NCBI GenBank assembly: GCA_963676565.1
Contig: OY781089.1
Location: forward strand, 3,168,001-3,232,000
DNA: 64,000 nt
DNA from: Halarcobacter sp.
GTDB lineage: Bacteria > Campylobacterota > Campylobacteria > Campylobacterales > Arcobacteraceae
Reading direction: 5' to 3'
Below are positions 1-4,188 of this stretch, piece after piece (the first letter of the stretch is position 1; every line of letters starts with the position of its first letter). The notes under the pieces are model-generated. The model made no database searches, had not been told where the DNA came from, and was given only the letters and a program-made list of their open reading frames with translations. A program made the translations under genes and the position numbers.

Positions 1-632
1 CTTCCACTGTGGCAGTATAAAATAATTGGTAACTCTTTTTTATCTTCAATTTGATCTAATGACTGATAAAAAGAAGTTGTAGGAACTAAATAATCAGTCC
101 CTTTAATTCTTGTACCAACCCATTCCATCCATTCCCTTGTATCAACAAGTAAAAAGTCAACAAACCCTAATTCTCTTGCTTCTAATAAAGCTTCAACTTC
201 AGAAGCATTAACCTGAGATTTTGTTAACAACGCTTCGCATTCTTCCTTTGAGATACCCTTTGAATGAATAATCTCTTCTTTTAAATCACTTTTATCTTCT
301 AATGATTTAGCATATTCAGGAGTACAGAAAATTGCACAGTGACAGTGTCCTTGAGTAGGGATCTCTTTAGTTAATGCAGGGGTACAGGGACAAAGTCTAT
401 TATCCTCTTTTTCTCTTTGCTCAGCAGTTTCACCAACAACCATAAAACATGGGCAAAATCTTTGATTATATATAAGTTTGTTTCTTGTTAGTCCCATTTG
501 AATAGATTCATTTACATCCATTTCAGGATTATAAACAAAACCATGTTCCTCACAAACTTTATCTGTAAATTGTTTTGTTAATTCAAGTTGAACTTGAAAT
601 TCTTCACTCTCAACATCAATTTTTTTTATCAT
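1..632 (-). CDS. Ferredoxin:thioredoxin reductase catalytic-domain / rhodanese fusion protein (3' end runs off the window)
   Basis: Not in the ORF track. Hand translation from ATG at 632 (AGGA RBS upstream): MIKKIDVESEEF...GLTRNKLIYNQRFCPC...RLCPC...GHCHCAIFC, which has the FTR catalytic CPC/CPC/CHC motifs. It continues LVDTREWMEW..TRIKG...PIILYCHSG, typical of a rhodanese domain and its active-site loop. Confidence 0.85.
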   Translation of the reverse strand, partial: MIKKIDVESEEFQVQLELTKQFTDKVCEEHGFVYNPEMDVNESIQMGLTRNKLIYNQRFCPCFMVVGETAEQREKEDNRLCPCTPALTKEIPTQGHCHCAIFCTPEYAKSLEDKSDLKEEIIHSKGISKEECEALLTKSQVNASEVEALLEARELGFVDFLLVDTREWMEWVGTRIKGTDYLVPTTSFYQSLDQIEDKKELPIILYCHSG

Positions 633-707
633 TATACGTCCTAATTTCAAATATAAAAGGAAGTATATAAAAGATTAGTTTATATTTAGTTGGTATATAA
701 AATTTAA

Positions 708-1953: not shown

Positions 1954-4188
1954 CTATTGTGCTACAGCTTCTAAAGGTTTATATGTAAATTTAAACTCCT
2001 CTTTAACAAAATCAATTTTAACTTGACCACCTTTTTTAAGTCTTCCAAATAAAATCTCATCGGTAAGAACATTTTTAATTTTATCTGAAATAACTCGTCC
2101 AAGAGGTCTAGCTCCCATTGCTTTATCATAACCAAGTCTAGCAAGCTCATTTTTAGCCTTAGCAGTAATAGAAATCTTGATTTTTTTATTTACCAATTGT
2201 TTTTCTAAATCTTCTATAAATTTACCAGCAACTTGTGAAACAATATCAGGACTTAATGATGTAAAGCTAACCATTGCATCAAGTCTATTTCTAAACTCAG
2301 GAGCAAAGAATTTATTAACTGCTTTATTTTCATTTAATGAATCATCTTTAGCAAAGCCCATAACATTTGCTTCTGCTGCACCTAAATTTGATGTCATAAT
2401 TAAAATAACATTTTGGAAATCTGCTTTATTACCACTATTATCAGTTAATTCTGCATTATCCATAACTTGAAGTAGGATTGACATTAAGTCTGGGTGTGCT
2501 TTTTCAATTTCATCTAGAAGTAAAACACAATGTGGATGTTTCCTAATGGCTTCTGTTAATAATCCACCATTTTCAAATCCAACATATCCTGCAGGAGCTC
2601 CAATTAATCTTGAGATTGTATGAGCTTCCATATATTCACTCATATCAAATCTTTCAAAATGGATTCCTAATTGATTAGATAACTCTTTTGCAACTTCTGT
2701 TTTACCAACACCTGTAGGTCCTGTAAAAAGAAAACTTCCAATAGGTTTTTTATCAATATTAAGTCCTGCTTTGTTTCTTTTGATTGACTGTGCAATAGTA
2801 CTAATCGCACTATCTTGACCAAATACTCTTTTTTGCATTCTTTTTTCAAGATTCTTAAGTAATGAAACATCAGACTTAGTTGCAGCTTTTGATGGTATAT
2901 GTGCCATTCTTGCAACTGTATCTTCTACATCTTTTTGAGTAATTTTAATATTGCTTTTATTTACACTTGAGTATTGAATCTTTTTACTAGCACCAACCTC
3001 ATCAATAACATCAATGGCACTATCTGGTAAAAATCTATCAGTTATATATTTTTTACTAAGTTCAACTGCCATTTCAATTGCTGTTTTGTTGTATTGTACA
3101 CTATGATACTCTTCATATTTTGGTTTTAAACCTTCCAAAATAGCAACAGCATCTTCTAAAGATGGCTCATCTATATCAACTTTTGCGAATCTTCTTGATA
3201 AAGCTTTATCTTTTGAAAAATCATTTCTAAATTCTGCAAATGTTGTAGCCCCTATACATTTTAACTTTCCATTTGCTAGCATTGGTTTTAGTATATTAGA
3301 AGCATCCATAGCACTTCCACTAACACTTCCTGCCCCAACAATTGTATGAATCTCATCAATAAATAAAATTGCATTAGGGATTGCACTTACCTCTTTTAGT
3401 AAAGATTTTAATTTTTTCTCAAAATCTCCTCTATATTTAGTCCCTGCAACCATTGAACCCATATCTAAAGAGAATATCTTTGCATTTTCTAAAAACTCAG
3501 GAACTCTTTTATTTGCTATTTCTAAAGCTAATCCTTCTGCAATTGCAGTTTTACCAACTCCAGGTTCACCAACTAAAATTGGGTTATTTTTCTTTCTTCT
3601 TCCTAAGATTTGAATAACCCTTTGGATTTCATTTACCCTTCCAATAACTGGATCTATTTCACCTTTGTGTGCAAGGGCAACTAACTCTGTTGAGTTTTTA
3701 TCTAATACTTTATTCTCTTTTTCAAGCCCTGGTTTAGAACCAATTTCACCCTCTTCTAAATCATCTTCTTTATGAGAGATTTCCTCAAGAATATCAACCC
3801 TTTCAACACCTGCTGATTTTAAAATAAAAGTAGCATATGATTTTTCATCTTTTAAAATAGCTACAAACATATCTTCAACACTTGCATTTCTTCTTCCACT
3901 TGCTTGTGCACTTGCAACCATATTCTCAATAATTGAAGTTAAAGTAATAGTTTCTATTGGCTCATCTTCAACATTTTCAGGATATATTGGTGTGTTTTCA
4001 TCAATATGTTTTTTTATATCATTGAATATTTTATTTTGATCAAGTCCTAAATCATTAAATAAATTCTCAATAACTTCATCATGAATCAACATTAAAAAAA
4101 TATGTTCAATGGTTAAATATTCATGTCTACTTTTTTTTGCATAGCCAACAGCTTGTGCAAATATATTTCTTAATTCTTTACTAATCAT
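1954..4188 (-). CDS. clpA: ATP-dependent Clp protease ATP-binding subunit ClpA
   Basis: Clp N-domain, two AAA+ modules (GEPGVGKT, GPTGVGKT), no ClpB middle coiled coil, directly downstream of clpS. Confidence 0.95.
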   Translation of the reverse strand: MISKELRNIFAQAVGYAKKSRHEYLTIEHIFLMLIHDEVIENLFNDLGLDQNKIFNDIKKHIDENTPIYPENVEDEPIETITLTSIIENMVASAQASGRRNASVEDMFVAILKDEKSYATFILKSAGVERVDILEEISHKEDDLEEGEIGSKPGLEKENKVLDKNSTELVALAHKGEIDPVIGRVNEIQRVIQILGRRKKNNPILVGEPGVGKTAIAEGLALEIANKRVPEFLENAKIFSLDMGSMVAGTKYRGDFEKKLKSLLKEVSAIPNAILFIDEIHTIVGAGSVSGSAMDASNILKPMLANGKLKCIGATTFAEFRNDFSKDKALSRRFAKVDIDEPSLEDAVAILEGLKPKYEEYHSVQYNKTAIEMAVELSKKYITDRFLPDSAIDVIDEVGASKKIQYSSVNKSNIKITQKDVEDTVARMAHIPSKAATKSDVSLLKNLEKRMQKRVFGQDSAISTIAQSIKRNKAGLNIDKKPIGSFLFTGPTGVGKTEVAKELSNQLGIHFERFDMSEYMEAHTISRLIGAPAGYVGFENGGLLTEAIRKHPHCVLLLDEIEKAHPDLMSILLQVMDNAELTDNSGNKADFQNVILIMTSNLGAAEANVMGFAKDDSLNENKAVNKFFAPEFRNRLDAMVSFTSLSPDIVSQVAGKFIEDLEKQLVNKKIKISITAKAKNELARLGYDKAMGARPLGRVISDKIKNVLTDEILFGRLKKGGQVKIDFVKEEFKFTYKPLEAVAQ

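Follow-up and report, generated by a model that had tools for sequence, protein, structure and literature searches.

A conserved fusion of a ferredoxin:thioredoxin reductase catalytic domain and a rhodanese in Campylobacterales is a candidate ferredoxin-dependent persulfide reductase

In ferredoxin:thioredoxin reductases (FTRs), the textbook example of this chemistry, an iron–sulfur (Fe-S) cluster splits a disulfide using electrons that arrive one at a time: ferredoxin delivers two in succession, and the disulfide is reduced via a cluster-bound intermediate. We know of no established substrates of FTR-type enzymes other than thioredoxin-like proteins. In rhodaneses of the GlpE type the acceptor is thioredoxin, a dithiol protein that is separate from the rhodanese itself. 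A reductase and a rhodanese are joined on one chain in the CoADR-rhodanese proteins, the kind to which we take the NADH-dependent persulfide reductase Npsr of Shewanella to belong. The catalytic subunit of FTR (FTRc) has reportedly undergone 'structural diversification' in bacteria and archaea, an expression said to stand in the abstract of Prakash et al. (2018, JBC), and the FDR of Methanosarcina is reported to act on Trx5 and methanoredoxin. Here we describe a gene that joins an FTR catalytic domain to a rhodanese domain. It lies at the left edge of a stretch of 64,000 nt from Halarcobacter sp. (assembly GCA_963676565.1, contig OY781089.1, positions 3,168,001-3,232,000; G000:C1:3168001-3232000 in our genome set), which is called the window below and to which all plain positions refer.

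The fusion gene starts at position 632 on the minus strand and leaves the window at its left edge. The first 210 of its 247 codons are contained in the window (1..632), and the last 37 codons and the stop lie to the left of it. Extension in the genome gave the whole gene, G000:C1:3167892-3168632(-), which encodes a protein of 247 amino acids (P0001). The original prediction, made from the window alone, held that the gene had been missed by the open reading frame (ORF) track. The frame is indeed absent from the ordinary ORF list because it runs off the left edge, and a listing in which open ends were allowed returned a minus-strand ORF at 3..650 with an open 3' end. The ATG at 632 was taken as the start because the homologues all begin with MIKKID and because a putative Shine–Dalgarno sequence, AGGA (639..642, minus strand), is read 6 nt upstream of it.

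The predicted fusion was borne out by the whole protein, on which both Pfam domains are intact. FeThRed_B (PF02943), the FTR catalytic-subunit domain, was matched by residues 16-121 with 117.1 bits (cut-off 22; profile positions 2-104 of 106), at 270..587 on the minus strand (G000:C1:3168270-3168587). The rhodanese domain (PF00581), whose absence or truncation had been named as grounds for abandoning the prediction, is complete: residues 145-239 matched profile positions 4-100 of 102 with 47.2 bits (cut-off 22.2; G000:C1:3167916-3168200). Residues 145-210 of this domain are encoded at 3..200 (minus strand) and the remainder to the left of the window. When the window part was searched by itself, FeThRed_B was recovered with an E value of 3.3e-34, and the rhodanese match was partial (profile 4-71 of 102, 25.3 bits, cut-off 22.2) because the window ends inside the active-site loop. 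Judged by profile hidden Markov models and motifs, the protein belongs to both the FeThRed_B and the rhodanese superfamily. No NCBIfam equivalog was reached; the best match was the FtrB double-selenoprotein family NF041072, with 58.1 bits against a cut-off of 160.

The predicted CPC/CPC/CHC set and peptide LYCHSG can be read directly from the sequence; their strand, which the original prediction did not give, is minus. The first CPC motif (Cys60-Pro-Cys62, 447..455) aligns with the CPC of 7bzk and 4tpu, the second (Cys81-Pro-Cys83, 384..392) would supply cluster ligands, and the CHC motif (Cys97-His98-Cys99, 336..344) is recognized both in the sequence and in alignments with Protein Data Bank (PDB) entries. 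From the FTR structures of Dai, Schürmann and Eklund we take it that Cys60, Cys81, Cys83 and Cys97 hold the cluster, that Cys62 and Cys99 form the redox-active disulfide and that His98 is catalytic. The last codon of LYCHSG occupies bases 3-5 of the window. Its cysteine, the predicted catalytic Cys207 (12..14), is the first residue of the loop CHSGSRS (CX4R; Cys207-His-Ser-Gly-Ser-Arg212-Ser), which is of the six-residue type beginning with Cys. Six-residue CX4R loops belong to sulfurtransferases, and seven-residue CX5R loops to the Cdc25/Acr2 phosphatase or arsenate-reductase types; an arsenate-reductase or phosphatase reading was rejected on loop length.

Conservation was analysed in 204 unique full-length fusions taken from protein searches and, as ORFs, from loci L003-L013 and L056-L135, leaving out sequences below 215 or above 320 amino acids and the fragment P0124. 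Cys60, Cys62, Cys81, Cys83, Cys97, Cys99, Cys207 and Arg212 are each present in 204/204, and His98, the histidine of true FTRs, in 203/204. The strict constraint on both active sites argues against a decayed, merely structural rhodanese.

These features suggest, tentatively and with a probability that we put at roughly 0.4, that the fusion works as a self-contained enzyme which reduces rhodanese-bound sulfane sulfur (a persulfide) with electrons from ferredoxin. We infer cluster binding, the ferredoxin donor, persulfide formation, domain contact and H2S as product in the following scheme. Cys207 would accept sulfane sulfur from one of several donors (thiosulfate, polysulfide, or the persulfide of a protein or of a low-molecular-weight compound), giving Cys207-SSH. 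In the FTR module, a [4Fe-4S] cluster on Cys60, Cys81, Cys83 and Cys97 would sit beside the redox pair Cys62/Cys99 and His98, and reduced ferredoxin would give this module two successive single electrons. The exposed thiol of Cys62 would then attack the persulfide on the flexibly tethered rhodanese, releasing HS- and regenerating Cys207, so that the net reaction would turn sulfane sulfur and two reduced ferredoxins into HS-. The role of such an enzyme in sulfur-cycling Campylobacterales could be to provide sulfide for assimilation or to remove excess sulfane sulfur. At about -400 mV, the thiosulfate/(sulfide + sulfite) couple has a very negative potential; a ferredoxin donor would suit it better than NAD(P)H. 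We propose that the FTR dithiol would be the counterpart of thioredoxin in the GlpE system and of the flavin/CoA module in CoADR-rhodanese, and both analogies speak for persulfide reduction.

A structural model is compatible with a mobile arrangement of this kind. AlphaFold2, run with an alignment of 33 sequences, gave a mean predicted local distance difference test score (pLDDT) of 91.6, with each domain above 90, a poor pLDDT in the linker (residues 111-125) and a predicted template-modelling score (pTM) of 0.52. In this model the two domains are well predicted and their mutual orientation is not fixed, and the low-pLDDT linker together with the pTM would fit a swinging-arm tether. Docking of the FTR part (residues 1-122) with a 4Fe-4S cluster against the rhodanese part (residues 123-247) gave ipSAE scores of 0.17 and 0.13, below the mark of 0.32, and counts neither for nor against binding. 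Foldseek searches of the PDB matched the rhodanese half to 6mxv, to GlpE (1gmx, TMt 0.79), to the persulfide-dioxygenase-rhodanese fusions 5ve3-5 and to CoADR-RHD (3ict), and the FTR half to 7c3f_D (TMt 0.64), 1dj7, 4tpu and 7pwe.

Compared with the classical plant and cyanobacterial FTRc (7bzk), the fusion shares the Pfam family and the aligned CPC/CPC/CHC motifs, including the histidine. It differs in inter-motif loops that are 2 and 5 residues longer, in an extra cysteine (Cys103) and in the C-terminal rhodanese; plant-type FTR chains match its fold with a TMt of about 0.64, but their sequence similarity reaches only E ~1e-4 to 1e-6. Identity with a classical FTR was rejected, as its own genome lacks the variable subunit FTRv (PF02941). 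The FDR of Methanosarcina acetivorans (4tpu) resembles the fusion in part: it has an FTRc-like core without variable subunit and a fused extra module, its loop lengths are similar, and it is the best FTR-type PDB match by sequence (E 1.4e-6). It carries a rubredoxin module and a CYC motif where the fusion has a rhodanese and CHC, and membership in FDR was rejected on the missing rubredoxin Pfam match and on His in place of Tyr. The substrates of Methanosarcina FDR are mentioned briefly in PMC6262447. In 7pwe of Desulfotalea psychrophila a glutaredoxin is fused N-terminally to an FDR core, and in our protein the rhodanese is C-terminal; no paper on the 7pwe fusion was found in the searchable literature. 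The glutaredoxin/FDR of 7pwe and the FDR-rubredoxin of 4tpu are precedents for the fusion of substrate or electron modules to this reductase family.

On the rhodanese side, GlpE of E. coli (1gmx) matches the fold at ~20 % identity and has a loop of six residues starting with Cys; unlike GlpE, the fusion bears its dithiol module on the same chain as the rhodanese. The CoADR-rhodanese or NADH persulfide reductase architecture (3ict) resembles the fusion in pairing a disulfide-reductase module with a C-terminal rhodanese, which is also the part that is structurally matched. Its reductase module is an unrelated flavoprotein working with NAD(P)H and CoA, in contrast to the Fe-S/disulfide centre of the fusion, which presumably uses ferredoxin. 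The fusion has no Pyr_redox domain, and membership was rejected: it is an analogue of CoADR-RHD and not one of its kind. Where the reduction of persulfide or polysulfide is concerned, CoADR-RHD is the closest counterpart in function. The original prediction knew of no biochemical characterization of an FTR-rhodanese fusion, and we likewise found no paper on one in the searchable literature, beyond whose reach surveys may list the architecture. NCBI and JGI already name it, so the architecture is annotated in databases, with no function given.

The other genes of the Halarcobacter genome, which is 99.97 % complete, set the fusion in a metabolic context. FeThRed_B occurs in the fusion gene alone, and there are 16 rhodanese-domain matches, 15 besides the fusion. 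The variable subunit PF02941 was not found in this genome, while a Synechococcus control was positive. SoxB (833 bits) and SoxY (154 bits) are both above cut-off, as are the canonical NADPH thioredoxin reductase TrxB (354.5 bits, cut-off 343) and five thioredoxins. These genes mark the organism as a sulfur oxidiser of the Sox type that also has an NADPH thioredoxin system, and the sulfur-cycling lineage assumed by the original prediction is upheld by its Sox sulfur-oxidation genes. E. coli-type GshA had no match in this genome, and the best GshB match had 72.5 bits (cut-off 299); by the GshA and GshB queries used, the genome is without glutathione synthesis genes. In the lack of both, a protein-based persulfide reductant would be useful, and with TrxB and five thioredoxins present there is no obvious need for one more plain thioredoxin reductase. 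The Sox genes and the sulfur-cycling named relatives were counted in favour of persulfide reduction.

The taxonomic range of the fusion was surveyed by protein and genome searches. A word-indexed protein search returned 1361 matches, the best 120 of which all have both Pfam domains; 118 of these 120 are 240-250 amino acids long and two are given as shorter (202 and 240). The organisms named among these best 120 are Halarcobacter, Arcobacter, Aliarcobacter and Malaciobacter. Database names of the proteins include 'ferredoxin-thioredoxin reductase catalytic domain-containing protein', 'sulfurtransferase' and, at JGI, 'ferredoxin-thioredoxin reductase catalytic subunit/rhodanese-related sulfurtransferase'. 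When 1.84 billion representatives (50 % identity) were searched exhaustively, 861 matches were obtained at E <= 1e-3. About five of the 861 are clusters of full-length fusions (P0121, P0122, P0123, P0125 and P0126, the last named as uncultured Sulfurovum), which indicates a compact family. The rest are stand-alone rhodaneses of 115-155 amino acids (40-54 % identity) and stand-alone FTRc-like proteins of ~118 amino acids, one stand-alone cluster being named Campylobacterota. No fused form of 434-2000 amino acids was found at E <= 1e-10 among 1726 candidates, which is weak evidence. In a scan of species-representative genomes, at least 506 relatives were detected, and the best 80 are all full-length; they come from Halarcobacter, Arcobacter, Poseidonibacter, Aliarcobacter, Malaciobacter, Candidatus Marinarcus, Sulfurospirillum and Sulfurovum, and from Sulfurimonadaceae, Sulfuricurvum, Hydrogenimonas and unclassified Campylobacterales/Campylobacterota.

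Within its own family, 137/151 genomes have a match and 127/151 a full-length fusion. A sample of the phylum comprised 301 genomes, all at least 90 % complete, of which 69 contain a full-length fusion. The two largest families, f2 and f3, account for none of these (0/90, with one FTR-only match, and 0/124, together 0/214), and the fraction outside them is 69/87. The fusion is present in every genome of f1 (16/16, own genome included), f7 (23/23) and f9 (2/2), in most of f4 (10/12), f5 (5/7), f12 (3/4) and f11 (7/11), in some of f8 (2/6) and f6 (1/3), and not in the single genomes of f10, f13 and f14 (0/1 each). Judging by their sizes and small genomes, families f2 and f3 would be the host-associated Campylobacteraceae and Helicobacteraceae. 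The fusion thus spans families of Campylobacterales and is absent from the f2/f3 sample; it is a real, intact and strongly conserved gene, typical of free-living Campylobacterales.

Some records depart from this pattern. Full-length fusions occur on contigs of metagenome-assembled genomes (L102, L118, L126, L129 and L135) labelled 'Helicobacter pylori PMSS1', 'uncultured Helicobacter sp.' or 'Planctomycetota bacterium'; the isolate-type genomes of f3 have 0/124, and these labels or the binning look doubtful. Genus g16 of the Halarcobacter family (G015, G036, G053 and G081) is without a full-length fusion, its genomes having the FTR part only, the rhodanese part only, or both on different contigs, and in G015 and G081 the rhodanese part contains one in-frame TAG. 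Genome G432 has an intact fusion (G432:C1:103506-104240) and a second copy with five stops, one TAG and four TAA (G432:C1:1722866-1723624), an apparent pseudogene.

Split forms of the fusion were also detected. In four genomes (G424, G426, G407 and G431) a stand-alone FTRc-like gene is followed by an adjacent rhodanese gene on the same strand. Both domains were confirmed by Pfam in three of the four pairs, at loci L021 (G424; FTR of 114 and rhodanese of 151 amino acids), L028 (G407; 122 and 121) and L023 (G431; 130 and 127), and the pair of G426 was seen as search matches only. G424 and G426 have a full-length fusion elsewhere in the same genome. The coexistence of a fusion and of adjacent split genes is a classical sign of a functional partnership between the domains. 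The FTR clade does not always depend on this partnership, since six genomes of the phylum sample (G163, G181, G182, G188, G237 and G357) have the FTR part only and no fusion. In family f5 a stand-alone FTR paralogue lies immediately upstream of the fusion (G155, G157, G180, G193 and G251; Pfam-confirmed for L020). At L020:4023-5085 this FTRc-like paralogue has 115 amino acids and overlaps the start of the fusion by a few bases, an arrangement also noted for G157, G180, G193 and G251. Further downstream the f5 loci encode a DUF7897 protein, which is conserved and contains an HEFGH motif.

In the window, the fusion is preceded on the minus strand by genes for a photoreceptor-domain protein of the BLUF type, a blue-light sensor using FAD (708-1115, 135 amino acids, 75 bp upstream), a predicted cytochrome c lipoprotein (1214-1867, 217 amino acids) and ClpA (1954-4188), and it is followed downstream by a convergent gene for a permease-like membrane protein. 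In the lipoprotein a long low-complexity region rich in Lys, Glu and Val is followed C-terminally by a mono-haem domain of cytochrome c with the motif CAACH. When these neighbours were sought by tblastn at 91 loci of relatives, the permease gene was a direct neighbour at 27, that for the cytochrome c at 20 and the BLUF gene at only 5. A promoter and terminator scan found no terminator-like site between the BLUF gene and the fusion, and 5 promoter-like sites versus 8.5 expected from shuffles. Contigs of the metatranscriptome libraries X16, X17 and X19, from two studies and at least 99 % alike, lie on L001 1876-2262. Such libraries can hold DNA and stretches without cover carry no information, so that this cover hints at transcription only weakly, if at all.

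Pfam was used to scan the neighbourhood at nine diverse loci (83 ORFs), and loci L023-L030 were inspected for FTR and rhodanese ORFs only. By Pfam, the neighbours at the nine loci of other families are mutually unrelated. They include YchF and a NarJ-like chaperone with a molybdopterin oxidoreductase; Band 7 and FKBP; MgsA; AlaRS; PII/Amt with the DUF7897 protein; and, at split pairs, an M20 peptidase. The order ArgG-fusion-RplI-HslV-HslU-Era was found in two families (L016 and L018). In a Sulfurospirillum-like family (L014:4971-8452) three genes lie next to the fusion in divergent orientation. They encode a NarJ-like chaperone, a molybdopterin oxidoreductase and a 4Fe-4S dicluster protein, a trio that resembles the polysulfide/thiosulfate reductase type and was seen at this one locus only. 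As neighbours are not conserved, no pathway can be assigned from them.

Several of these observations weigh against persulfide reduction. No sulfur-metabolism partner, ferredoxin or thioredoxin is adjacent at the nine Pfam-scanned loci, and the neighbourhood varies between families. No contact between the domains was seen, their orientation being unfixed in a single-chain model with a pTM of 0.52. The 15 other rhodanese matches and the NADPH/thioredoxin system could already reduce persulfides. The FTR-only lineages and the f5 paralogue indicate that this FTR clade can act on targets other than a fused rhodanese. Free-living families differ from the apparently host-associated ones in many traits, which makes the link to sulfur only correlative.

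A further point concerns three cysteines that belong to neither textbook active site: Cys103 (324..326, minus strand), in the motif CHCxIFCT; Cys132 (237..239, minus strand), in a helix that the fold model places at residues 129-135, before the rhodanese core; and Cys216, nine residues after Cys207 and left of the window. They are found in 198/204 (Cys103, replaced by Leu in 7bzk and Val in 4tpu in the PDB sequence alignments), 197/204 (Cys132) and 200/204 (Cys216) fusions. Persulfide reduction leaves their near-invariance unexplained, and they fit a disulfide switch or regeneration step at least as well.

This leads to a second explanation, which we regard as doubtful, in which the output of the fusion would be sulfur transfer. 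The electrons that the FTR module draws from ferredoxin would serve only for reopening a disulfide, or reversing an oxidation, on the rhodanese, by which Cys207 would be regenerated or switched on. The protein could then relay sulfur to the thiolation of tRNA or to molybdopterin, thiamine or Fe-S assembly, or it could be a redox-gated sulfurtransferase, with Cys207-Cys216, Cys207-Cys132 and Cys132-Cys216 as candidate disulfides. A model for such a cycle is ThiI, whose Cys344-Cys456 disulfide needs to be reduced after each turnover. Sulfur transfer explains the near-invariant Cys132 and Cys216 better than persulfide reduction does. In addition, Cys216 was lost only where Cys132 was lost (4/4), Cys132 being lost alone three times, and among stand-alone rhodanese relatives P0130, P0131 and P0133 keep both cysteines and P0135 loses both. 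This co-loss comes from few, mutually related sequences and is a hint rather than a test, and L024, outside the set of 204, is a counter-example that keeps Cys132 and lacks Cys216. The best NCBIfam matches of the rhodanese part are the MoeZ/MoeB rhodanese domains, in line with a relay, but they are far below cut-off and no equivalog was reached. Similarly, the housekeeping-type context from ArgG to Era would fit a biosynthetic role, but no acceptor gene of the ThiS, MoaD, TusA or MnmA type is adjacent at the nine scanned loci. No result discriminates between persulfide reduction and sulfur transfer.

Less probable, and in our view improbable, is an ordinary ferredoxin:thioredoxin or protein-disulfide reductase with external protein substrates, in which the rhodanese would be an accessory: a cluster shield replacing the variable subunit, a dock or a sensor. 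Every FTR catalytic residue is kept, His98 included, the variable subunit PF02941 is missing from the Halarcobacter genome, five thioredoxins are available there, and the order also contains related FTRs that stand alone. A shield or dock, however, would not need the invariant Cys207 and Arg212 (204/204), the long low-confidence linker of the model argues against a fixed shield, and the genome already has a canonical thioredoxin reductase that uses NADPH. It is very improbable that the fusion reduces, with ferredoxin, some other chalcogen or oxyanion handled by rhodanese-type domains (selenite/selenide delivery, tellurite or arsenate): the NCBIfam similarities to selenoprotein-related families that point to it (FtrB_double_U, 58 versus 160 bits, rhodanese_LYCAU and TsoB) are weak and far below cut-off, so that none of these families is reached, the loop is CX4R and not CX5R, no sel or ars genes are adjacent at the nine scanned loci, and the ArsC-family gene (PF03960) near the split pairs of L021/L022 is two genes away on the opposite strand.

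If persulfide reduction is the function of the fusion, it may define a new class of enzyme, a proposal against which we lean slightly: a single-chain ferredoxin:persulfide (sulfane-sulfur/thiosulfate) reductase, in which an FTR centre would directly resolve the persulfide of a tethered rhodanese in two one-electron steps, with Cys103, Cys132 and Cys216 possibly serving as a relay or switch between the centres. It would provide glutathione-less, sulfur-cycling Campylobacterales with a low-potential route from thiosulfate, polysulfide or persulfide to sulfide. A rhodanese-wired FTR would extend Fe-S disulfide chemistry to persulfides and tie the ferredoxin pool directly to the handling of sulfane sulfur. 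Should the FTR module merely regenerate or gate the rhodanese, the fusion would nonetheless add a new point at which sulfur trafficking is controlled through ferredoxin. Persulfide reduction, if true, would give a function to a gene that is present in nearly all sampled free-living Campylobacterales, among them sulfur oxidisers that are abundant in vents, sediments and wastewater.

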